In this document: positions 23,365 to 46,585 of the stretch, piece after piece
Layout: each line of letters begins with the position of its first letter
How positions within the stretch are numbered: position 1 is the first letter of the stretch
Program-made: the position numbers and the translations under genes
From: Escherichia coli
GTDB taxonomy: Bacteria; Pseudomonadota; Gammaproteobacteria; Enterobacterales; Enterobacteriaceae
Assembly (NCBI RefSeq): GCF_030384885.1
Contig: NZ_CP128613.1
Direction: 5' to 3' (one strand)
DNA length: 64,000 bases
Notes under the pieces: generated by a model
Databases searched by the model: none
What the model saw: only the letters and a program-made list of their open reading frames with translations
What the model was told of the DNA's origin: nothing

Positions 23365-26300
23365 TTAATGGAAAATGACGTCAGGTGCGCTTAACGCTTC
23401 ACTCAAATCAAACGTATCGAGTTCGGCAAAAGTGACAGATTTATTGTCACGGTACACTCGAAGAGAACGGAAGCTCATTAGCGCTTTGCTATCAGCACTG
23501 TAGTGGTTAAAACCGGGTGAAAACTTAAGGACCAGCCGATACTCGCCCAGGTCATAGACACATGCGTCCTCAAAACCTGACTCCCAGCCTTTGTATCGCA
23601 TTCCCATAAGTTGCCCAACGGTTGCGGATTTACCTTCCCAGCGAGTCAGGCTGTTACTGGCTGACTCGTCAGGTGTGAGCAGCACTGTGCGCCGCATCAA
23701 CTGGCGAAAAGGCGGCATAATTTCGTAATCGGCAAAAACCTGTGCAAATTCACTGCGCATTTCTGCTGTCATTTCTAACGGGTGGGCAATGCCAATCAGA
23801 GCATCCGCAGGCAGGTCAATTGGCTCATCTTGTGCGTTGCAGAACTCCCTCTCAGCGGCCACACGAAAGGCGTTAAGTAAACGACGCGGTTCATTTGCCG
23901 GATAAACCGCCCATATTAATCGCTGAGTAACCAGGCGAGTAAAGGGATGATTAACAAACAGAGAATGAAAATCTGCCAGCGACCAGCGTCGAGTGGTGCG
24001 TAGGGCAGTTTCAAGACGCGGGAGCAGGTTTTTGCTCACCTGAGTGGCATCTTTTTTTAGCCCTTTTAGTCGGGCCAGTGCCTCGGGTGCTTTCAGCTGA
24101 TCGTCATCGGCGCGCAACCGGGGAACACTTTTCTGGCGAACGTTTTGCTGATCAAAGATAACCGGGTTGAGGTTTTCATCGAAGCGAACGGTAAACTGCC
24201 GGGGTCCAAAATCAAATATCAACGCCTGCGGATCATCCAGGCCCAGTGTTGGGACTAATCTGTCCGCTAACTCTTCCTGGCTTAGTCCACGATTTTCTGC
24301 GACCACCTGAAGAAATTCCGCCGCGTTATCACGTAAGGGACGGGATTTCGCCCGTTGCGATATATGATGCAGCTGTATCAGCGCCATATCATTATTCATC
24401 AGGGTAAGTATATTCAGACCACTGACAGCACGGGCAGATTTGCCCTCTTGAGGCCAGGCAAGGATCTGTGTCGTCAGATCCCGTGCCGTGCTTTCGTCGC
24501 CAAAGAGACTTAACGCCAGAAATGCCCAGTTGTCTTTTGCGGGAGCACCAGCTTGTTGCCACGCGGTGAAAAGATCCCAGGCAAAAGCGGCCAGCGTTTG
24601 TGGCTGGCAGAACGTTTTCAGTTGTTCCAGCCCGCAATAAAAACGTCCGCCCTGGGTAAAGCGCAGCATTTCGCCAATAATTTCCAGAGCGTCATCAGTA
24701 ACAGGTTGATTATTCGTGATAAGTCTCGGTCTGGACCACATTGTCGGATGCCAGAAATCAGGAGCTTTTGGAATGCGTGTTGGGTAAATCTCTATTGGAC
24801 TCTGTTTAAGTAATTGATCCAGGGCAGGCCATACATCTGTACGCTGCCAGCGGTTTGCCACGGTTTGCAGTAATTCGCCATGCCCTTGTTCATACAGTAA
24901 ACGCAGAGCGCTGAGTGCCGCTTCGCTGTTATCGCCAGACCTGGCAAAGATTAATGGGATCAGCGCCGTAGCCGTATGCTCCGGCCATTGTAAAATCCAC
25001 TGGCGAGCCAGATTACGCTGGCCCGCAAAACGATGCCAGACGCGGGCAACGGGCAGCGCCAGTTCTGTTGCGCCAAAATGAATCAGCAGCGGAAATATCT
25101 CTTTGGGATGTCGGGCAAAGGCGGTGATTAATCCGGGCAAAGCATCGGTACCCAGGACACTTAACAGATATTCTACCCCGGTGTAATGAAAATCAGCCGC
25201 AACAATTTGTTGCCAGCACGATACCGCCATTTCGCGCGGCATCTGCGCGATAAGGTACAGATTCCACACTCCCCAACGCTTTTCATCAGTGTAATTAAAT
25301 TTGCGTTGGAAAGTTCGCCACCCCTCCATCAACGCAACGCTATCTTGTGCCAGTAATGCGCTGGCGGCCTCTTCCCGGTAGTGTTTATTTTCAGTCTGTT
25401 TTGCCTGATAATTGAGCAATCTTCCTAATGAAGTATGTGTCTCTAGTTGATCGGTATCCAGAGCATCCAACTGTCCTGTGAGAATAAACTCATTAAACTT
25501 CCACCTGTGATCTTCAAAACCTAATTCCCGCAAGAAGGTATCTGCCCCTCTGCTTACGAGACGTTCGTCAAAAGACATGGCGCTAAAATGGTCAATTGCA
25601 GTTTGCTGTTCCGGCGTCCAGTGTTTATTCGGCGACCTATACGCTTGCGGTACAAGCGTAAGTTCAGGTAGCGAAAAGTGAGTTATGGAAGTCTTTTTCC
25701 TGCCACGCCATGGTGGTGAAACGAGGATTTCAGGCAGACTGCTGTTATCGGTGCTATCAATAACCGGTTTTGGCGATGCCGATAAATAACTATTCACCAC
25801 TGCCCGGGCTTGAGTACTTAACCACGGGATCACCTCTTCTGCCAGTTGTGGCTGCGATGCCATCAGCGTTTGTAACAGCGTACGCCAGTATTCATCACGT
25901 GCTTTTTGCTGTGCAGGCAGCTTTTTGTCTTCGATGATAGGATAACCAGGGCGCGTAGGGGGGGCTTTTAACGCCAGTAGTTCTGCCAGTGCGGCGAGCG
26001 TCGCATGGGGAAAGTTTTTACTGTATTTAGCCACACGCTGCAGGCTGGGTTTGTTTTTATCGGCAACTAACAGCAAGATGCGAATAATTTGCGGATGGTT
26101 AATTTGTACCAGCAGGCTACCGCAATCTTCTTTATGGGCATACATTGCCAGGTGTGGAATGGCTGCCAGTCCTTGTTCGCGCAAAAGGGCAGCGCAGGCC
26201 GCGTAGCCGAAGTGGTTTTCATGCGACATGTAGCTGGCTTCCCGATCGCTAAATATATCCTGGCTCCAGTAGCGTTCGAGTTTTTTCACCGCTCTGGGGT

Positions 26301-27015
26301 CATTAGCAACAACTTTTAACCACTCCTTAGAATGAAAATGAGTCCGCGGGCATTCAAGGCCTACCAACTCATTGGCGATTTCTGGTTTCTCCGGGAGGAT
26401 GAGTGCAATAAAAGGACGGCGAACTTTGGGTATTCCTGGCAGTGCGGCAATGAGTTTGTCGGCGCAACGCTGCCAGCAGCTTTCCTCTGCCAGAGAGAGA
26501 TGCTTACGCAGTCGGAGATCGAATTCGTTATAGGTTTCTGAGCGATAACCATAACCATCGTCCTCGTTCTGATACTGCAATGTTACTACCAGAGGATCAC
26601 TCTCATAACACCGTACAATAAACTGGCGTGCAATCACCACTTCAGTCGCATATTCCAGTCCCTCTTGTTGGACGATTTCGTCGAGCAACTGTTGGCTATC
26701 ATTTTGCGCGATACAGGCTAGCGCCGCCATTGTCCGGGCCGGAATTGAGGGTTTGTGCTCGCCGATCAAGTTGATGGCTTGCGTAATGGCCGACTGCCAC
26801 TCCAGTGAAAAATTTTCATAACGCCAGACGATGTTTTTTTTCTTCTCAGCAATGTGTAGCAATTTATCACCCAGTGTCTGGATGAGGCTTTCAGTGATAA
26901 CAGGCACCGGTTCGCCCGGCCAATTGCGATGGCTGAGTGGTGTTTTGCCTTTTTTATATTTCAGTTCCAGTTGGGCGTTATCCGCCAGCCACGGTAATTC
27001 CTTGTCCATGCTCAT
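23365..27015 (-). CDS. yehI: Large DUF4132-family protein YehI (MolR paralog lacking the WGR domain)
   Basis: 1216-aa ORF; C-terminal two-thirds alignable with both MolR-like genes (GAPAKDNWAF...FGPRQFTV...YEIMPPFRQL); begins at the position homologous to just after their WGR domain. Confidence 0.88.
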   Translation of the reverse strand: MSMDKELPWLADNAQLELKYKKGKTPLSHRNWPGEPVPVITESLIQTLGDKLLHIAEKKKNIVWRYENFSLEWQSAITQAINLIGEHKPSIPARTMAALACIAQNDSQQLLDEIVQQEGLEYATEVVIARQFIVRCYESDPLVVTLQYQNEDDGYGYRSETYNEFDLRLRKHLSLAEESCWQRCADKLIAALPGIPKVRRPFIALILPEKPEIANELVGLECPRTHFHSKEWLKVVANDPRAVKKLERYWSQDIFSDREASYMSHENHFGYAACAALLREQGLAAIPHLAMYAHKEDCGSLLVQINHPQIIRILLLVADKNKPSLQRVAKYSKNFPHATLAALAELLALKAPPTRPGYPIIEDKKLPAQQKARDEYWRTLLQTLMASQPQLAEEVIPWLSTQARAVVNSYLSASPKPVIDSTDNSSLPEILVSPPWRGRKKTSITHFSLPELTLVPQAYRSPNKHWTPEQQTAIDHFSAMSFDERLVSRGADTFLRELGFEDHRWKFNEFILTGQLDALDTDQLETHTSLGRLLNYQAKQTENKHYREEAASALLAQDSVALMEGWRTFQRKFNYTDEKRWGVWNLYLIAQMPREMAVSCWQQIVAADFHYTGVEYLLSVLGTDALPGLITAFARHPKEIFPLLIHFGATELALPVARVWHRFAGQRNLARQWILQWPEHTATALIPLIFARSGDNSEAALSALRLLYEQGHGELLQTVANRWQRTDVWPALDQLLKQSPIEIYPTRIPKAPDFWHPTMWSRPRLITNNQPVTDDALEIIGEMLRFTQGGRFYCGLEQLKTFCQPQTLAAFAWDLFTAWQQAGAPAKDNWAFLALSLFGDESTARDLTTQILAWPQEGKSARAVSGLNILTLMNNDMALIQLHHISQRAKSRPLRDNAAEFLQVVAENRGLSQEELADRLVPTLGLDDPQALIFDFGPRQFTVRFDENLNPVIFDQQNVRQKSVPRLRADDDQLKAPEALARLKGLKKDATQVSKNLLPRLETALRTTRRWSLADFHSLFVNHPFTRLVTQRLIWAVYPANEPRRLLNAFRVAAEREFCNAQDEPIDLPADALIGIAHPLEMTAEMRSEFAQVFADYEIMPPFRQLMRRTVLLTPDESASNSLTRWEGKSATVGQLMGMRYKGWESGFEDACVYDLGEYRLVLKFSPGFNHYSADSKALMSFRSLRVYRDNKSVTFAELDTFDLSEALSAPDVIFH

Positions 27016-30825: not shown

Positions 30826-33800
30826 TTAATCAAAAAGTGATTCAACATCGTTAATCAACTCGCTGGCGGTGATGTCGTCGAGCATGGAAAAAGTAAGTAA
30901 AGGTTGTTTACCGTAGCGATCATCTGGCGAGGTGATTTTTACGCTTTCAACAGGTAACAGGTCGCCATAACCTGTTTCACCATAAATTAATGAAAAATGT
31001 TCTGTTTCAAGTTCGAGATCGCCATAAGGGGTAGATTTGCGCATCGCATAGACGCTGCCGCTTTCTTCCAGACGTTGCCAGCCTCGGCGCTCTAGCCCGA
31101 CAATACGTCCGGCCTGACAGAGCTGTCCTTGCCAGCGTGTCAGGTCGTGGGTATTCCGTTCATTATCAGCAAGACGATAACTACCACGATCGAGCTGTTG
31201 GAAGGGGGGAAGCAGTTCGTAATCAGCGTAAATTTGCCTGAATGCAGCGGCAGATTCAGGGGGGATTTCCAGCACATGCGGTATACCGATGTTTCCTGCT
31301 GGCAGCGTGAATAACTCATCCTGCGCATCGCTGTAAGTGCTGTCTTCTGCGACCCGGAAGCAGGCAATCAGCGTGTTTTCTTCAGTATATACTCCCCATA
31401 ACAGCCGTCGGGTTAAGTGACGTACCAGCGGATGCTCCACCAGAAACAGGCGGAACTGTTCTGCCGTCCAGCGTCTGCGCTGGCACATAGCCTGCTCCAG
31501 ACGATCAATCTGCTGACTGGCAATGGCGCGCACATCTTTCTTCAATTGTTTGAAGAGGTTAACGGCGTCAGTTGCCAGTGTTTTATCATCGCTCTGATTT
31601 GGTTTGGGTAAATCTTTCAGGACTTTGCCGTTTGCATCGCGCACTACAGGTTTTAAGGTTTCGTCAAAACCAACGGTGAATTGACGTGGGCCGAAATTAA
31701 GTATCAGCGAGCCGTTGATATCAAGCCCTAAATCTGGAGCCAGGCGGTCTTCCAGTTCGGCCATAGTCAGCCCACGGTTTTCAGCAACTATGTTGATTTT
31801 CTCGCGGGCATGTTCCTGTAATACAACGAATTTAATCTTTTTCGCAATGCCATTAAGCAGCATTAGCGCAACATCGCTGCCAATATCAGCTAATACATCC
31901 AACCCGGACACCGCCCGTTTATGCTGTGATTCCCCAGGCCAGGCACTGATAAGCGGGGTTAATTTACGCGCGGTGTCGTCATTGCCTAAAATCCCCAGCG
32001 AAGTAAATGCCCAGTTTTCTTTTGCGGGTGCGCCAGCTTCTGTCCAGGCGGTATACAGATCCCAGCCAAAGTCAGCCAGTGATTCGCGAGTGAAGGTTTC
32101 TTTGATGATCTCCAGCCCAGCGTAGGCGGTAATGTCGCGAGGAAAGCTCAGCATAGTGCCCAGGTGGCGCATAGCGTCATCTGGTAGAGGCAGGTTGTTA
32201 CTTTTAAGCCGTGGTCTGCGCCATAAGGTGAACTGATAAAAGCCGGGCAGTGGGGCGATTTTTGCGGGATATTCTTCCAGAGGATCGCTATCAAATAATG
32301 TTGCCAGCGCAGCTAAAACATCAGGTTGATTATATCCTTGCGCGATTTTCTCAATCGTTTCTCGCTGGTTTAATTTCACTAGCAGGCGGAGCGCCTGGCG
32401 GGCATATTCCCGATTTTGGCACGGTTTGCCCAGTGCCAAAGGCAGTAGCCCGGCGGCGGCATGGCGCGGGTTATTTGCCAGCCAATTAACGGCATCCTTG
32501 TAAGCCATTTTTTTCTGTAACCGCTGCGCCATTGGTAAGGCTAGTTCACTGGCCCCAATAAAGAGGGTGAATATCCACAGTCGTTGATGATCTCGTTGCA
32601 AGCAGGTCATAAACGCAGGAATGGCCGTACTACCAAAAACTGCCAGAATCTCTTTCTCACCTGAATATCGCTCCTCAATGATTATTTGGTTGAGAAATGA
32701 AATCGCCTGTTGTCCCGGTAAGTAACAAAGCGCAGATAAATTCCAGCTTTTGTTGGCATTGTTGTGATATTTCGCAAACTCAGCTTTTAGTGCTGGAAAA
32801 TCAAAGCGCAACAAGGCATCAACAGCGCTTTGCGGTATGTATTTTTTTTCATGTAAGTCATCTTCGCAATGCAGCCATTCATTAAAACCTAATTGCCAAA
32901 GGATTTGTTGTTCTGGTGTAAAAGGAATGAAAGATGTCTCCCAGCTTTCTTTTTCAATTAGTGGTAGGTCGGTAAATAAGGTTTGCTGTGATGCCTGATA
33001 TTTCGCGATTTCACTGAATCTGGATATGTCAGTGTGACTGATTAACTCTGTAATTCCTGGTGTGATATCCGTGACGGCAGGAATGGGAAGCACAGGTAAA
33101 TCAAATACGGGTATTACATTTTTCTTCTTATTTATTATCCACGGTGGAGCGACAAATAGCTGCGGCAACATATCCGCAGTGGCATACTCACATTCTTTAG
33201 CTACTGACTGAGGACGACATTCAGATAAGATGCCTGCCGCTTTAGCATTAACCCAGGGAATGACGTCAGTGACTAACTCTGGCGTGACGGTAATCAGTTT
33301 GACAAGCGCGTTGCGCCACTGTGCATCTTCATGTATTGCCAGCAAAGTAGCATAAGCGGCAATAGCCGCAGCGGGATGTTTTTGGCAGGCTTTGCTTAAG
33401 TATTCCAGGTGCTTTTTCTTGCCATTTACACCGAGGATCAGAATTTGAATCGCATCCGGGTGATTCGTTTTCCATAGCCATTTGACAAGATCTTCAGTCT
33501 CGCTGATGCGCTCGAAGAGATAAGTGGGATTGTCAGAATGCTCTTCCACAAACTCAGTAAGTATCCGGCTTACACCGCGCCCCCCATTATTTGCCAGCAA
33601 CATTGCCAGATAAGCGCGAAAATCACGATACAACGGTGGGAAGTCGTATTTTTCTGCTGTAGTCAGAGCTATATCATCGGTTACTACCAGTCTTAACCAG
33701 GTTATCGCCGGAACGTTTTGGTCTGCATAATGTAGCGCCATAGCATTGGCAATATCCGGGCGTTCAGGGAGCAGTAACGCGGCAAAAGGTTGCCGTGCTG

Positions 33801-34623
33801 GGGATAGCGTCGGAATAGCAGTAAGCACTTTATCCACACAGCGTTGCCACTCATCTTCTGAAGCGAGTGAAAGATGATGACATAGACGTTGATGCCAACT
33901 CGGTAGCGATTCTGCTTCGTGATTAGGTGGAATGATGGTGGTTACTGCGCCTTTTACTGGTTTATATTTGAGTTGAAGAGCGAGAAGGGCGATTTCAACG
34001 GCACTTTCCAGACCACAGCGAATGACTAAGTCATCGACCAGTTCATCTTGAGAGTAAGAGTTCCAAAAGCCCCAGAGCAATGCTGCATCAGATTGCGCAC
34101 TCCCTGTCGGTTGATTACCCTGAACTCGCATTTGTAACTCAGCAAAAGCCTGCTGCCAGTTTTCTGGATAAGAGCGGTAATTATTGTCGGGGTCATATGC
34201 CCTGGTGTTATTCGCGATGCGCTTCCATATTTGACCATCTTTGTGCAGATAATTGATATCTCTGGGGCGAGAGCGATGTGGAAAAGCAAATCGGTTAATA
34301 TCGTCGGTTAGCGGAATGACTGCATCATCAGCCAGCCATGGGCGTTTGTTTTTACTCTCGGGTGAAGTTTCAACGTCAGGAGTGACTTTGGTGACGGGGG
34401 GGATATGCACGTTTGCCGAAGCGTCTTCCACATAGCCTTTTTTCGTTTTCTCAGCGATAAGCTTCAGTTCCGCTTTTTCCGCCGCCGCAGCATCCGCAAA
34501 GCTTTTTATCTGGCTTTGCCCTTGGGTGCCAACTTTTCCCCAACTGATATGCAACTCGTTACCTTGCTGCCCCACCGCCCAGAATTTATGCGATTTTTCG
34601 TCCTGGTAGATATAACTCTTCAT
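30826..34623 (-). CDS. MolR-like protein, WGR domain plus DUF4132 (1265 aa), copy B
   Basis: N-terminus MKSYIYQDEKSHKFWAVGQQGNELHISWGKVGTQGQ; diverged central region; conserved C-terminus; 12-nt gap to copy A. Confidence 0.85.
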   Translation of the reverse strand: MKSYIYQDEKSHKFWAVGQQGNELHISWGKVGTQGQSQIKSFADAAAAEKAELKLIAEKTKKGYVEDASANVHIPPVTKVTPDVETSPESKNKRPWLADDAVIPLTDDINRFAFPHRSRPRDINYLHKDGQIWKRIANNTRAYDPDNNYRSYPENWQQAFAELQMRVQGNQPTGSAQSDAALLWGFWNSYSQDELVDDLVIRCGLESAVEIALLALQLKYKPVKGAVTTIIPPNHEAESLPSWHQRLCHHLSLASEDEWQRCVDKVLTAIPTLSPARQPFAALLLPERPDIANAMALHYADQNVPAITWLRLVVTDDIALTTAEKYDFPPLYRDFRAYLAMLLANNGGRGVSRILTEFVEEHSDNPTYLFERISETEDLVKWLWKTNHPDAIQILILGVNGKKKHLEYLSKACQKHPAAAIAAYATLLAIHEDAQWRNALVKLITVTPELVTDVIPWVNAKAAGILSECRPQSVAKECEYATADMLPQLFVAPPWIINKKKNVIPVFDLPVLPIPAVTDITPGITELISHTDISRFSEIAKYQASQQTLFTDLPLIEKESWETSFIPFTPEQQILWQLGFNEWLHCEDDLHEKKYIPQSAVDALLRFDFPALKAEFAKYHNNANKSWNLSALCYLPGQQAISFLNQIIIEERYSGEKEILAVFGSTAIPAFMTCLQRDHQRLWIFTLFIGASELALPMAQRLQKKMAYKDAVNWLANNPRHAAAGLLPLALGKPCQNREYARQALRLLVKLNQRETIEKIAQGYNQPDVLAALATLFDSDPLEEYPAKIAPLPGFYQFTLWRRPRLKSNNLPLPDDAMRHLGTMLSFPRDITAYAGLEIIKETFTRESLADFGWDLYTAWTEAGAPAKENWAFTSLGILGNDDTARKLTPLISAWPGESQHKRAVSGLDVLADIGSDVALMLLNGIAKKIKFVVLQEHAREKINIVAENRGLTMAELEDRLAPDLGLDINGSLILNFGPRQFTVGFDETLKPVVRDANGKVLKDLPKPNQSDDKTLATDAVNLFKQLKKDVRAIASQQIDRLEQAMCQRRRWTAEQFRLFLVEHPLVRHLTRRLLWGVYTEENTLIACFRVAEDSTYSDAQDELFTLPAGNIGIPHVLEIPPESAAAFRQIYADYELLPPFQQLDRGSYRLADNERNTHDLTRWQGQLCQAGRIVGLERRGWQRLEESGSVYAMRKSTPYGDLELETEHFSLIYGETGYGDLLPVESVKITSPDDRYGKQPLLTFSMLDDITASELINDVESLFD

Positions 34624-40190: not shown

Positions 40191-42671
40191 ATGTTGAGAA
40201 TGACCCCACTTGCATCAGCAATCGTAGCGTTATTGCTCGGCATTGAAGCTTATGCAGCTGAAGAAACCTTTGATACCCATTTTATGATAGGTGGAATGAA
40301 AGACCAGCAGGTTGCAAATATTCGTCTTGATGATAATCAACCCTTGCCGGGGCAGTATGACATCGATATTTATGTCAATAAGCAATGGCGCGGGAAATAT
40401 GAGATTATTGTTAAAGACAACCCGCAAGAAACATGTTTATCCAGGGAAATTATCAAGCGGTTAGGCATTAATACCGATAACTTTGCCAGCGGTAAGCAAT
40501 GTTTAACATTTGAGCAACTTGTTCACGGTGGGAGCTATACCTGGGATATCGGAGTTTTTCGTCTCGATTTCAGTGTACCGCAGGCGTGGGTGGAAGAACT
40601 GGAAAGTGGCTATGTTCCACCGGAAAACTGGGAGCGGGGTATTAATGCGTTTTATACCTCTTATTATGTGAGTCAGTATTACAGCGACTATAAAGCGTCG
40701 GGTAATAGCAAGAGTACATATGTACGTTTTAACAGCGGGTTAAATTTACTGGGGTGGCAACTGCATTCTGATGCCAGTTTCAGTAAAACAAATAGCAATC
40801 CAGGGGTGTGGAAAAGCAATACCCTGTATCTGGAACGTGGATTTGCCCAACTTCTCGGCACGCTTCGCGTGGGTGATATGTACACATCAAGCGATATTTT
40901 TGATTCTGTTCGCTTCAGCGGTGTGCGGTTGTTTCGTGATATGCAGATGTTGCCTAACTCGAAACAAAATTTTACTCCACGGGTGCAGGGGATTGCTCAG
41001 AGTAACGCGCTGGTAACTATTGAACAGAACGGTTTTGTGGTTTATCAGAAAGAGGTTCCTCCTGGCCCGTTTGCGATTACAGATTTGCAGTTGGCCGGTG
41101 GTGGAGCAGATCTTGATGTCAGCGTGAAAGAGGCGGACGGTTCGGTAACCACCTATCTGGTGCCTTATGCAGCAGTGCCGAATATGCTGCAACCCGGCGT
41201 GTCGAAATATGATTTTGCGGCAGGTCGTAGCCATATTGAAGGGGCGAGCAAACAAAGTGATTTTGTTCAGGCGGGTTATCAGTATGGTTTTAATAACTTA
41301 TTGACGCTGTATGGCGGATCGATGGTCGCGAATAATTATTACGCGTTCACTTTGGGGACTGGCTGGAATACACGCATTGGTGCCATTTCCGTCGATGCCA
41401 CGAAGTCGCATAGTAAACAAGACAACGGCGATGTGTTTGACGGGCAAAGTTATCAAATTGCCTACAACAAATTTGTGAGCCAAACGTCGACGCGTTTTGG
41501 TCTGGCGGCCTGGCGTTATTCGTCGCGTGATTACCGGACATTTAACGATCACGTTTGGGCAAACAATAAAGATAATTATCGCCGTGATGAAAACGATATC
41601 TATGACATTGCCGATTATTACCAGAACGATTTTGGCCGTAAAAATAGCTTTTCTGCCAATATGAGCCAGTCATTGCCAGAAGGCTGGGGTTCTGTGTCCT
41701 TAAGTACGTTATGGCGAGATTACTGGGGGCGTAGCGGCAGCAGTAAGGATTATCAGTTGAGTTATTCCAACAACCTGCGACGGATAAGCTATACCCTCGC
41801 AGCAAGCCAGGCTTATGACGAGAATCATCATGAAGAGAAACGTTTTAATATTTTTATATCGATTCCCTTTGATTGGGGTGATGACGTTACGACGCCTCGT
41901 CGGCAAATATATATGTCTAACTCAACGACATTTGATGATCAGGGTTTTGCCTCAAATAATACGGGATTATCGGGAACCGTTGGAAGCCGGGATCAATTTA
42001 ACTATGGGGTCAACCTGAGTCATCAGCATCAGGGAAATGAAACGACAGCTGGAGCGAATTTAACCTGGAACGCGCCGGTGGCAACGGTGAATGGCAGTTA
42101 TAGTCAGTCGAGTACTTATCGACAGGCTGGAGCCAGTCTTTCAGGGGGCATTGTCGCCTGGTCGGGTGGCGTTAATCTGGCGAACCGTCTTTCCGAAACG
42201 TTTGCTGTGATGAATGCGCCAGGAATTAAAGATGCTTATGTCAATGGGCAAAAATATCGCACAACAAACCGTAATGGAGTGGTGGTATACGACGGAATGA
42301 CACCTTATCGGGAAAATCACCTGATGCTGGATGTGTCGCAAAGCGATAGCGAAGCAGAATTACGTGGCAACCGGAACATTGCCGCCCCTTTTCGCGGCGC
42401 GGTTGTACTGGTTAATTTTGATACCGATCAGCGCAAGCCCTGGTTTATAAAAGCGTTAAGAGCGGATGGGCAACCATTAACGTTTGGTTATGAAGTCAAT
42501 GATATCCACGGTCACAATATTGGTGTTGTCGGTCAGGGAAGCCAGTTATTTATTCGCACTAATGATGTACCGCCATCGGTTAATGTGGCAATTGATAAAC
42601 AACAAGGGCTCTCATGCACAATCACCTTCGGTAAAGAGATTGATGAAAATAGGAACTATATTTGCCAGTAA
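40191..42671 (+). CDS. yehB: Fimbrial outer membrane usher
   Basis: ORF track starts at a TTG (40176); ATG at 40191 with an upstream AGGAG gives 826 aa beginning MLRMTPLASAIVALLLG. Confidence 0.9.
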   Translation: MLRMTPLASAIVALLLGIEAYAAEETFDTHFMIGGMKDQQVANIRLDDNQPLPGQYDIDIYVNKQWRGKYEIIVKDNPQETCLSREIIKRLGINTDNFASGKQCLTFEQLVHGGSYTWDIGVFRLDFSVPQAWVEELESGYVPPENWERGINAFYTSYYVSQYYSDYKASGNSKSTYVRFNSGLNLLGWQLHSDASFSKTNSNPGVWKSNTLYLERGFAQLLGTLRVGDMYTSSDIFDSVRFSGVRLFRDMQMLPNSKQNFTPRVQGIAQSNALVTIEQNGFVVYQKEVPPGPFAITDLQLAGGGADLDVSVKEADGSVTTYLVPYAAVPNMLQPGVSKYDFAAGRSHIEGASKQSDFVQAGYQYGFNNLLTLYGGSMVANNYYAFTLGTGWNTRIGAISVDATKSHSKQDNGDVFDGQSYQIAYNKFVSQTSTRFGLAAWRYSSRDYRTFNDHVWANNKDNYRRDENDIYDIADYYQNDFGRKNSFSANMSQSLPEGWGSVSLSTLWRDYWGRSGSSKDYQLSYSNNLRRISYTLAASQAYDENHHEEKRFNIFISIPFDWGDDVTTPRRQIYMSNSTTFDDQGFASNNTGLSGTVGSRDQFNYGVNLSHQHQGNETTAGANLTWNAPVATVNGSYSQSSTYRQAGASLSGGIVAWSGGVNLANRLSETFAVMNAPGIKDAYVNGQKYRTTNRNGVVVYDGMTPYRENHLMLDVSQSDSEAELRGNRNIAAPFRGAVVLVNFDTDQRKPWFIKALRADGQPLTFGYEVNDIHGHNIGVVGQGSQLFIRTNDVPPSVNVAIDKQQGLSCTITFGKEIDENRNYICQ

Positions 42672-43802: not shown

Positions 43803-44141
43803 TTAGCGATGATAAAAAATCTCACCATCGTAGGCTTTAATGATTTTACCGTCGGTGTCGCTGATCAACACGTACGCGCCACCCATATAGGTCCAGTGCG
43901 TCCCGGCATCAGGCGCGGGCAGGTTACGTAACTGCCACTGCTTAATGTTGTACTCATCGGTGCGGTACATCTCTGGGACGGTATCGCCTGGTTTGAAATG
44001 CTTAAAGTCAGCAATGAAACTGCTTAACTCATACTTAGAAATTCCCGAGGTATTGGTCGAACCCGCGGTGGCTGGTGCGGCCCAGGCGGCACTGGTAACC
44101 AGCAAAAGCACACCCAGCAACATCTTATTTTTAATGGTCAT
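43803..44141 (-). CDS. rcnB: Periplasmic nickel/cobalt homeostasis protein RcnB (YohN)
   Basis: ORF 43803-44321(-); start at 44141 gives 112 aa beginning MTIKNKMLLGVLLLVTSAAWA. Confidence 0.88.
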   Translation of the reverse strand: MTIKNKMLLGVLLLVTSAAWAAPATAGSTNTSGISKYELSSFIADFKHFKPGDTVPEMYRTDEYNIKQWQLRNLPAPDAGTHWTYMGGAYVLISDTDGKIIKAYDGEIFYHR

Positions 44142-44359
44142 AAACTCTCCACTTTGGGGATCTGTAATATCAGTCGCATATCTTTCCTGCCATACAATAT
44201 AACTGACAAGCGATATTTTGTTAGTGATCCCATGATTTCGTAAAAAGTGTAAATGAAAGGATGCCCTAAAAGCATCCTTAGCGAGCAGAGAGCCAGCGGA
44301 AATAGCTGATTTAAGAATCATCCTGGGCTGAAGATAACATGCAAGCCTAAAGGATTGAG

Positions 44360-45181
44360 TTATCGTATTATGCCCATAAAGCCATGTACGCCCATATACA
44401 CACCAACTAAGCCAATCAACAGACTGGAAAAATAGGGGGCGCGTTTAGCGAGAGTGTTAAATCCGCTCCAGCGTTTTGCGACCTGCTGAACGCTGATTGC
44501 TGCGCCAATGCCTACGGTGACCAGCGTTAACGCAAGGCCAATGCTGAAACTGACGACCAGTGTTGCGCCCAGTGTCAGGGCTTTCAACTGAATGCAAATC
44601 AACAGCACGGTAATTGCTGCCGGGCAGGGGATAAGGCCACCGGTTAAGCCAAATAACAAAATTTGCCAGTTGGTGACCTCTCTACCATCGAAGCGTCGTT
44701 TAATGTCATTGGCATGGGCTCGTGCATGAGCATCCTGATACTCCCCATGTTCGTGATGGTGATGATGTCCATGGTCGTGGTGATCTTCGTGATCGTGATG
44801 ATACTCATGATCATGCCCGTGCATATTCTCCAGCCAGTTGCGTTCGCCGCGCCAGGTACGCCAGAACATCCAGAACGCGGTGCCAATAATGATCACCGCG
44901 GAAATCAACTGGAGCCACGGTTCTGCAGATTGAGCAGTAAAACGTTTGCTGATCACCATCCCGCCAAAGGCAATCAACCAGACCACCGCGGTATGCGAAA
45001 TGGTTGCTGCCAGTCCGAGCATCACCGCCTGTTTAATGGTGCCTTTGATGGCGATGATAAACGCCGCCATCATCGTTTTTGAGTGCCCTGGTTCCAGGCC
45101 ATGAAGCGCACCAAGTAAGATGGCGCTGGGGATGAAGAACCAGGCATTTCCTTGCTGAAGAAGAGTGGTAAATTCGGTCAT
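44360..45181 (-). CDS. rcnA: Nickel/cobalt efflux protein RcnA
   Basis: 273 aa membrane protein with His-rich loop HGHDHEYHHDHEDHHDHGHHHHHEHGEY. Confidence 0.93.
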   Translation of the reverse strand: MTEFTTLLQQGNAWFFIPSAILLGALHGLEPGHSKTMMAAFIIAIKGTIKQAVMLGLAATISHTAVVWLIAFGGMVISKRFTAQSAEPWLQLISAVIIIGTAFWMFWRTWRGERNWLENMHGHDHEYHHDHEDHHDHGHHHHHEHGEYQDAHARAHANDIKRRFDGREVTNWQILLFGLTGGLIPCPAAITVLLICIQLKALTLGATLVVSFSIGLALTLVTVGIGAAISVQQVAKRWSGFNTLAKRAPYFSSLLIGLVGVYMGVHGFMGIIR

Positions 45182-45218
45182 GATAATAATTCTTAGTATT
45201 AATTCGGCAATCCGATTC

Positions 45219-45253
45219 TACTCCCCCCCAGTACCTGATACTACCCCCCAGTA
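45219..45253. promoter_or_regulatory. Two tandem RcnR operator sites in the rcnA-rcnR divergent promoter region
   Basis: tactcccccccagta (45219-45233) and tactaccccccagta (45239-45253), i.e. TACT-C(6-7)-AGTA inverted repeats. Confidence 0.8.
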
Positions 45254-45301
45254 GAATAATAGTGCTATGATTTTTCATGTTCTTGTTAACCAGGTGTTGC
45301 C

Positions 45302-45574
45302 ATGTCTCATACAATCCGTGATAAACAGAAACTGAAAGCGCGTGCCAGTAAGATTCAGGGTCAGGTCGTGGCGCTCAAGAAAATGCTCGACGAGCCGCAC
45401 GAATGCGCAGCTGTTCTACAACAGATTGCTGCTATCCGTGGCGCGGTAAACGGCCTGATGCGCGAAGTGATTAAGGGGCATCTGACGGAACACATCGTTC
45501 ACCAGGGGGATGAGCTAAAACGTGAAGAAGATCTGGATGTCGTTCTGAAGGTGTTGGATTCATATATCAAATAA
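45302..45574 (+). CDS. rcnR: Ni/Co-responsive repressor RcnR (CsoR/RcnR family)
   Basis: 90 aa beginning [22 protein letters not shown]. Confidence 0.93.
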
Positions 45575-45667
45575 TTTCACAACGTTATTGTAATCCCGCC
45601 GTTTTTCCTCGTTTACAACGTGTGCGCGGGACATTACCATCCATCTCTGCGATTCATCATCGCAACC

Positions 45668-45790
45668 AAACGACTCGGGGTGCCCTTCTGCGTGAAGGCT
45701 GAGAAATACCCGTATCACCTGATCTGGATAATGCCAGCGTAGGGAAGTCACAGACCACCAGGTCATTGCTTCTTCACGTTATGGCAGGAG
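45668..45790 (+). ncRNA. TPP (thi-box) riboswitch in the thiM leader
   Basis: cgactcggggtgcccttctgcgtgaaggctgagaaatacccgtatcacctgatctggataatgccagcgtagggaagtc matches the thiM TPP aptamer; expression platform runs to the SD of thiM. Confidence 0.9.
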
Positions 45791-45796
45791 CAAACT

Positions 45797-46585
45797 ATGC
45801 AAGTCGACCTGCTGAGTTCCGCGCAATCAGCGCACGCGTTAAACCTCTTTTACCAACACTCTCCTCTTGTGCATTGCATGACCAATGATGTGGTGCAAAC
45901 CTTTACTGCCAATACTTTACTGGTGCTCGGTGCATCGCCAGCGATGGTTATCGAAGCAGAAGAGGCCAGTCAGTTTGCGGCTATCGCCAGTGCCTTGCTA
46001 ATTAACGTCGGCACGCTGACGCAGCCACGCGCACAGGCAATGCGTGCTGCCGTTGAACAGGCAACACACTCCCAAACGCCCTGGACGCTTGATCCGGTCG
46101 CGGTTGGCGCACTCGATTATCGTCGCCATTTTTGTCATGAACTTTTATCTTTTAAACCGGCAGCGATACGTGGTAATGCTTCGGAAATCATGGCATTAGC
46201 TGGCGTTGCTAATGGTGGACGGGGAGTGGACACCACTGACGCCGCGGCTAACGCGATACCTGCTGCACAAACACTGGCACGGGAAACTGGCGCAATCGTC
46301 GTGGTCACTGGCGAGGTGGATTATATTACCGATGGTCGTCGCACCGTTGGCATTCACGGCGGCGATCCGTTAATGACCAAAGTGGTAGGAACTGGCTGTG
46401 CATTATCGGCGGTTGTCGCTGCCTGTTGTGCGTTACCAGGTGATACGCTGGAAAATGTCGCATCTGCCTGTCACTGGATGAAACAAGCCGGAGAACGCGC
46501 CGTCGCCAGAAGTGAAGGGCCTGGCAGTTTTGTTCCCCATTTTCTTGATGCGCTCTGGCAATTGACGCAGGAGGTGCAGGCATGA
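45797..46585 (+). CDS. thiM: Hydroxyethylthiazole kinase
   Basis: 262 aa; start [32 protein letters not shown]. Confidence 0.93.

Follow-up and report, generated by a model that had tools for sequence, protein, structure and literature searches.

The operator of the Ni(II)/Co(II)-responsive repressor RcnR is a textbook site, which is already employed in cobalt-inducible expression circuits. To our knowledge, no protein–DNA structure is yet available for the tetramers of the CsoR/RcnR family. The operators of this family share a common design, and its members vary in the preferred spacing between the half-sites, within a range of 6–9 bp. CsoR proper binds to “type-2” sites, which have split tracts and accommodate two tetramers, unlike the “type-1” sites of RcnR. 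The published RcnR operator has the form TACT-G6-N-AGTA and occurs twice between the rcnA and rcnR genes (Iwig & Chivers 2009; Blaha et al. 2011; both as reported by papers citing them). The portions of the literature that are accessible in this way describe one RcnR tetramer per site, the metal-free form of which touches the TACT/AGTA ends via the minor groove, recognises the unbroken, A-form-like G tract by its shape, and wraps the flanking DNA. They also describe one shared operator through which rcnA as well as rcnR is repressed, the regulation of RcnAB by RcnR, and the binding of apo-RcnR to the operator of K-12 with its release by Ni/Co.

The locus analysed here is situated in a 64-kb stretch of Escherichia coli DNA (hereafter, the window). 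Its control region is the 120-bp gap at 45182–45301 between the start codons of rcnA (45181, − strand) and rcnR (45302, + strand). The rcnA gene (44360–45181, − strand), which is the RcnR-repressed target, encodes a Ni/Co efflux permease of 273 aa, assigned in the profile search to the nickel/cobalt efflux subfamily NF007454 of NCBIfam (553 bits) and to the NicO family of Pfam (235 bits). Downstream of it lies rcnB (43803–44141, − strand; 112 aa), which matches the Pfam family RcnB PF11776 with 67.8 bits; the downstream neighbour is annotated as rcnB in K-12 as well. On the opposite side, rcnR (45302–45574, + strand) encodes the repressor of 90 aa, which is autoregulated from the shared operator. 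Its product matches the NCBIfam equivalog NF011613 (197 bits at a cutoff of 138) and Pfam PF02583 (DUF156), is 100% identical to E. coli RcnR, and contains H3, C35, H60, and H64, i.e. the complete H-C-H-H set of metal ligands as defined in the literature. These profile matches bear out the names rcnA and rcnR, which a preliminary description of this DNA had given to the two genes. Both genes are present and so annotated in 5,361 of the 5,426 complete E. coli genomes.

Two further features of these genes may be mentioned. RcnA varies in length: it has 273 aa in the window and 274 aa in K-12, whereas the O157:H7 protein has 285 aa and that of IncHI2 plasmids 371 aa. In an alignment with other E. 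coli, rcnA of the window shows an indel of 3 nt (gap columns 524–526), which probably falls into the His-rich loop. Between rcnR and thiM, a TPP riboswitch is located at 45666–45762 (Rfam RF00059, 71.5 bits).

The preliminary description placed two TACT/AGTA sites in the divergent rcnA–rcnR region, and we found them at 45219–45233 and 45239–45253. Site 1, which is nearer to rcnA, reads TACTCCCCCCCAGTA, that is TACT-C7-AGTA (TACT-G7-AGTA on the − strand), and its C7 homopolymer occupies 45223–45229. Site 2, which is nearer to rcnR, reads TACTACCCCCCAGTA, that is TACT-A-C6-AGTA (TACT-G6-T-AGTA on the − strand), with the C6 homopolymer at 45244–45249. The sites are separated by the 5-nt linker CCTGA (45234–45238), so that the two 15-bp units represent a 15-nt direct repeat with a period of 20 bp. 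The formula TACT-C(6-7)-AGTA proposed earlier is thus correct for the lengths of the C runs (7 and 6 nt) and has to be amended for site 2, where an A precedes the C6 run and the spacer is 7 nt long, as it is in site 1.

In the whole window the pattern TACTNNNNNNNAGTA (TACT-N7-AGTA) occurs twice, both times in the rcnA–rcnR gap, against 0.34 occurrences expected; two copies were reached in 3 of 100 shuffles. The published form of the operator, TACTGGGGGGNAGTA, is matched without mismatches by both sites on the − strand, which is the rcnA-sense strand. Even with two mismatches allowed, only 0.12 matches to it are expected, and none of 100 shuffles reached two. The recognition of the RcnR motif in the preliminary description was right, the sites being equal to the published TACT-G6-N-AGTA.

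The 42-bp core at 45214–45255 is identical to that of K-12, in which RcnR binding was measured, and the flanking genes, the 20-bp spacing of the sites, and the RcnR protein (100% identity) are also the same. The two strains differ by four flanking SNPs in the 191-bp alignment (at about 45167, 45213, 45256, and 45279–45281), none of which is within the sites. At 45256, the window has A where K-12 and most E. coli have T, which converts AGTAGATT into AGTAGAAT, so that the sequence to the right of site 2 exactly mirrors ATTCTACT, the sequence to the left of site 1. The same SNP also creates a TAGAAT hexamer on the rcnR side; the SNP at 45213 is another one found in this region.

Since the window and K-12 have the same operator core, the published binding data apply directly to the window, and the question of whether RcnR binds to these sequences in vitro is already answered, according to the citing papers, by the work on K-12. 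The tandem operator is an already known feature, which had been correctly recognised, and it represents an ordinary, well-characterised regulatory element. Our main reading, to which we ascribe a probability of roughly 0.94, is that the region is a tandem type-1 RcnR operator located between the promoters of the divergent rcnA(B) and rcnR, and that indels with heritable alleles recur in the C7 tract of its site 1. Nothing argues against the operator assignment, for which RcnR binding is taken from the literature on the identical K-12 core; the promoter elements discussed below are putative.

To see how far this arrangement extends beyond E. coli, we performed an RcnR-based scan that yielded 80 species genomes, ranging from Escherichia to Morganella and including one Vibrio. 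Tandem sites were found in 70 of them; Morganella, Erwinia psidii, and Edwardsiella anguillarum are single-site species. The spacer of site 1 is C7 in 65 of the 70 species loci, the exceptions being CCCCCCT (two loci), C6, C8, and a parsing artefact (one locus each). The spacer of site 2 is ACCCCCC in 59 of 70; nine of the exceptions are substitutions, which interrupt the run or change its last base, and two are length variants, so substitutions within the site-2 tract are tolerated. The linker is 5 nt long in 69 of 70 loci and 6 nt in the remaining one, and across the 70 species TACT and AGTA vary no more than the C tract does. Hence, while members of the CsoR/RcnR family differ in the preferred spacing, among the RcnR orthologues it equals 7 nt, a value within the family range, in about 96% of species. 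A chance origin of the sites was rejected on the basis of this conservation.

Long G/C runs are otherwise avoided in K-12: in 150 kb of its sequence only one run of at least 7 nt was found, which is the G7 of the operator itself, against 17.3 expected from the base composition. From conservation and rarity taken together it therefore follows that the operator tract is kept against a general avoidance of long G/C runs, and that its 7-nt length is strongly constrained. The species comparison shows that strong purifying selection acts on the 7-nt spacer throughout Enterobacterales.

The operator also travels with its regulator. Tandem sites were found on 411 IncHI2-type plasmids, and on a Ralstonia megaplasmid a gene for a 62%-identical RcnR is preceded by one TACT-CCCCCCT-AGTA site. 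The module of the IncHI2 (mcr-9-type) plasmids is similar to the window in having the tandem TACT-C7-AGTA/TACT-AC6-AGTA with a 5-nt linker, followed by TGGTATAGT, but differs in its RcnR (92% identity), a longer RcnA (371 aa), the linker sequence, and the flanks. The 411 plasmids bearing rcnR–rcnA are mostly conjugative and come from Enterobacter, Salmonella, Klebsiella, Citrobacter, and E. coli (for example, p48880_mcr).

These data bear on the suggestion that the main role of the G/C tracts is not that of RcnR sites but, for example, that of a promoter spacer, a G-quadruplex, or another structural element, the TACT/AGTA symmetry being incidental. The overlap with putative promoter elements, described below, is the one observation that speaks for it. 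However, the invariant TACT and AGTA accompany rcnR to plasmids and to Betaproteobacteria, two G runs are insufficient for an intramolecular quadruplex, and the literature, in the form reported by citing papers, assigns binding to exactly TACT/AGTA plus the tract, so that the suggestion is contradicted by the published footprinting and mutagenesis. We consider it extremely improbable and retain the RcnR operator as the function of both tracts.

A separate case is Escherichia whittamii, in which (locus ~1285–1437) the antisense rcnA coding sequence directly precedes the rcnR start codon. The entire intergenic region, both sites, and the 5′ end of rcnA appear to be deleted, and the deletion may have joined the AACCAGG(C/T)GTT repeats which flank this region in E. 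coli.

The arrangement of the sites relative to the promoters can be proposed from elements conserved between species. On the rcnR side, a putative extended −10 element TGCTATGAT of the form TGnTAnnnT lies at 45263–45271 (+ strand), and this pattern begins 9 nt past site 2 in 46 of 70 species; site 2 would thus lie over the −35 position of the rcnR promoter. On the rcnA side, the putative −10 element is TAGAAT at 45220 to 45215 (− strand), which shares bases with the AGTA end of site 1; in most species AGTA is followed on this side by GAAT and then by ~15 nt of variable sequence. A conserved block CTAAGAATTATTATC (45182–45196, − strand), which immediately precedes the rcnA ATG, is likely the ribosome-binding region, and its form CTAAGAATyATTmTC-ATG is conserved across genera. 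The hexamer pairs suggested by a consensus sigma-70 scan were rejected in favour of these conserved elements, because the transcription starts which they imply would fall at or within the start codons.

If these putative elements hold, both promoters would be occluded by bound RcnR, and the spacer of the rcnA promoter would contain the site-1 tract. According to the literature, the operator works as follows. The two 15-bp sites, 20 bp (about two helical turns) apart, each present a nearly or completely unbroken G/C tract between AT-rich half-sites to a metal-free RcnR tetramer, resulting in repression of rcnAB and rcnR. RcnR bound at site 1 (rcnA −10) and site 2 (rcnR −35) would exclude RNA polymerase from both promoters, as the conservation of these elements suggests. 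According to the literature, binding of Ni(II) or Co(II) at the H-C-H-H site then releases RcnR and switches the efflux on.

The preliminary description also proposed that the C tracts could undergo slipped-strand length variation, and a comparison of tract lengths across strains was the check recommended for it. For this comparison, 5,426 complete E. coli genomes were searched with queries representing the region with both tracts lengthened or shortened by 2 nt, in which N stood at each position with a known SNP and the query length was set so that only longer (or only shorter) regions pass the 95% identity band. A longer region was found in ~160 of 5,350 genomes (3.0%), of which ~135 have one additional nucleotide, 22 have two, and a few have three or four. 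A shorter region was found in ~166 of 5,350 (3.1%), ~126 of which are contracted at site 1 and have a full-length site 2. Each of these band counts may be inflated by up to 15 partial-coverage alignments, and they represent genomes rather than mutational events.

In all 23 length variants that were fetched, the indel is within a C tract, mostly that of site 1. The alleles recovered among them are C5, C6, C8, and C9 at site 1 and AC5 at site 2; the site-1 tract is thus length-polymorphic in other E. coli, and the site-2 tract varies rarely, AC5 being present in a few assemblies. All 12 fetched expansions are at site 1, and 6EVA, a dubious assembly, has C9 at both sites.

Several of these alleles are common to related strains. 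Three O121:H19 genomes, each obtained from a separate source, have C8. C6 is present in four O111-type genomes (from Japan, USA, and Australia), which have no substitutions in the 1.9-kb flanks, and O103 RM8385 combines C6 with the same RcnA allele as the O111-type genomes. C9 is found in W619 and XH990 together with a common linked SNP and RcnA allele. C8 is also carried by haplotypes which are 32–51 substitutions per 1.9 kb apart (PCN061, APEC O2-211, SCU-106/A8); therefore, it either arose several times or was moved by recombination. The recommended comparison has thus revealed C6, C8, and C9 as lineage alleles in E. coli.

Homopolymer contractions in “complete” assemblies can mimic biological variation (at a level of about 4% for the operator motif), and one may suggest that all the tract-length differences are sequencing or assembly errors in an E. 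coli operator which is truly invariant. We used two controls: a C6/G6 pair in the intergenic DNA upstream of hupA, and the operator motif as it occurs on the near-identical IncHI2 plasmids. An independent 7-mer control could not be added, since in 150 kb of K-12 there is no 7-nt G/C tract except that of the operator; a G7 run of the window (25958–25964, in the yehI-like segment) was dropped as a control, because its allele is present in only 14 genomes. The hupA pair itself (K-12 locus 40697–40723; CGCCCCCCGTCTGGTCTACATTTGGGGGGCG followed by A7) is a C6...G6 inverted repeat which resembles a stem-loop or terminator, and its length is essentially invariant across 5,326 genomes.

The two classes of length change behave differently against these controls. 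Expansions were found in 1 of 5,326 genomes for the hupA pair and in 1 of 411 IncHI2 plasmids, so that chromosomal expansions at the operator (160 of 5,350) are from 12 to more than 100 times above the baseline. Contractions were found in 30 of 5,327 genomes for the hupA pair and in 16 of 411 plasmids (3.9%), and as a class the chromosomal contractions (3.1%) are not above this same-motif plasmid baseline. The error explanation correctly accounts for a part of the contractions. Among the 30 shorter hupA rows, 19 are 3 nt short and belong to the ET series, 25DN, and GB2005, several of which are also 3 nt short at the unrelated rcn locus; we conclude that the ET series (ET5/ET358/ET745 and others), 25DN, and GB2005 are systematically compressed assemblies, which have lost bases in unrelated G/C homopolymers. 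ZH193 and SA186 have identical 1.9-kb flanks and different contracted tracts, which may be an error as well. The EVA series shows implausible gains, and 6EVA, with C9 at both sites, also has a broken rcnA. Many contractions, especially those found in single genomes, are therefore probably assembly errors, because they are equally frequent in the plasmid control and because some assemblies compress unrelated homopolymers.

As an explanation of all the variation, however, assembly error is very unlikely. It does not agree with the excess of expansions over both controls, nor with the C8 allele common to three O121:H19 genomes, the C6 allele common to four O111-type genomes from three countries, or the C9 allele common to W619 and XH990. 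By its lineage coherence, the O111 C6 allele is a contraction beyond the error level. The slippage idea of the preliminary description is consequently upheld insofar as strains differ in tract length and lineages exist in which a particular allele is fixed, but contractions taken overall do not exceed the plasmid control.

The variation that remains on the side of heritable alleles is compared below with phase variation. In phase-variable promoters, such as those of Neisseria porA and opc with their poly-G/C tracts or NadR/nadA with its repeat spacing (PMC2791445), a strain-variable mononucleotide tract is located in the promoter or operator, as it is in the rcn region. By analogy, the C tract could be a “contingency locus”, in which fast and reversible slippage switches rcnA/rcnR expression within clones. 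Such a role would agree with the position of the tract within the operator and, by inference, within the rcnA promoter spacer, with the repeated origin of length alleles on unrelated haplotypes, and with the ~6% of off-modal genomes observed both in E. coli and among the species representatives. But the rcn tract differs from the phase-variable promoters in being short (7 nt), in the lineage stability of its alleles, and in the strong conservation of the modal length (the spacer is retained in ~96% of 70 species), and an effect on expression is here only hypothetical. Isolates of one lineage sampled on different continents retain the same allele (C6 in O111, C8 in O121), which suggests that switching, if any, is slow; expansions are almost absent from the near-clonal plasmid set (1 of 411). 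In the literature that could be searched, which is incomplete, no paper was found on tract polymorphism of rcnA/rcnR or on their phase variation. The lineage-stable alleles, the shortness of the tract, and the near absence of plasmid expansions argue against classical high-frequency phase variation, and we regard a contingency locus as quite unlikely.

Instead, the observed pattern fits recurrent slippage around a selected 7-nt optimum, because the indels are recurrent, confined to the homopolymer, and mostly of ±1 nt. C6, C8, and C9 represent heritable alleles, which probably arose by replication slippage. Most likely, an off-modal tract would result in a weaker occupancy of site 1, a changed spacer of the rcnA promoter, or both. 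The conservation of the spacing suggests that the off-modal alleles are not neutral in the long term.

A more far-reaching version of this slippage scenario is conceivable, although we consider it rather unlikely: the site-1 tract may be a mutational hotspot within a repressor operator, at which the C6 (O111/O103-type haplotype), C8 (O121:H19 and at least three other backgrounds), and C9 (one more background) alleles alter the TACT–AGTA half-site spacing and the putative rcnA promoter spacer and would heritably reset the basal expression of rcnAB, and with it the Ni/Co tolerance, in pathogenic lineages.

The operator itself adds nothing new to the knowledge of RcnR, and the modest gain of this analysis is the population-level result on spacing alleles. 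The half-site spacing is near-invariant in Enterobacterales, yet a few percent of E. coli, among them the Shiga-toxin lineages O121:H19 and O111, have heritable off-spacing alleles. These alleles would matter only if binding or expression is affected. If they change RcnR occupancy, they would provide natural mutants for studying how CsoR/RcnR tetramers read the spacing and the shape of the G tract, and might account for strain differences in nickel and cobalt handling.

In parts of the window, its strain is unusually distant from other E. coli. Over 44272–46178 (rcnA to thiM), it differs from eight other E. coli by 82–101 substitutions per 1.9 kb (4.3–5.3%), whereas these eight differ among themselves by 0–70 substitutions per 1.9 kb over the same genes. 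At least 99% identity over the 191-bp control region was found in only 15 of 5,361 genomes, and the yehI-like segment around 25958 (25922–25974) was matched by only 14 genomes. The best match throughout the divergent segments is strain 2013C-4282 (NZ_CP027579.1).

Two more G7 runs of the window are located in large ORFs: 25958–25964 in the ORF at 23365–27015 (1216 aa), for which the matching genomes carry a DUF4132 annotation, and 34396–34402 in the ORF at 30826–34623 (1265 aa). Neither run was found in the corresponding region of K-12, and both are potential frameshift-prone sites. The segment 23365–34623 contains three consecutive − strand ORFs of ~1,216–1,265 aa, while its K-12 counterpart has only two DUF4132 genes, one of which is a pseudogene; the window strain may thus possess an extra or intact paralogue.
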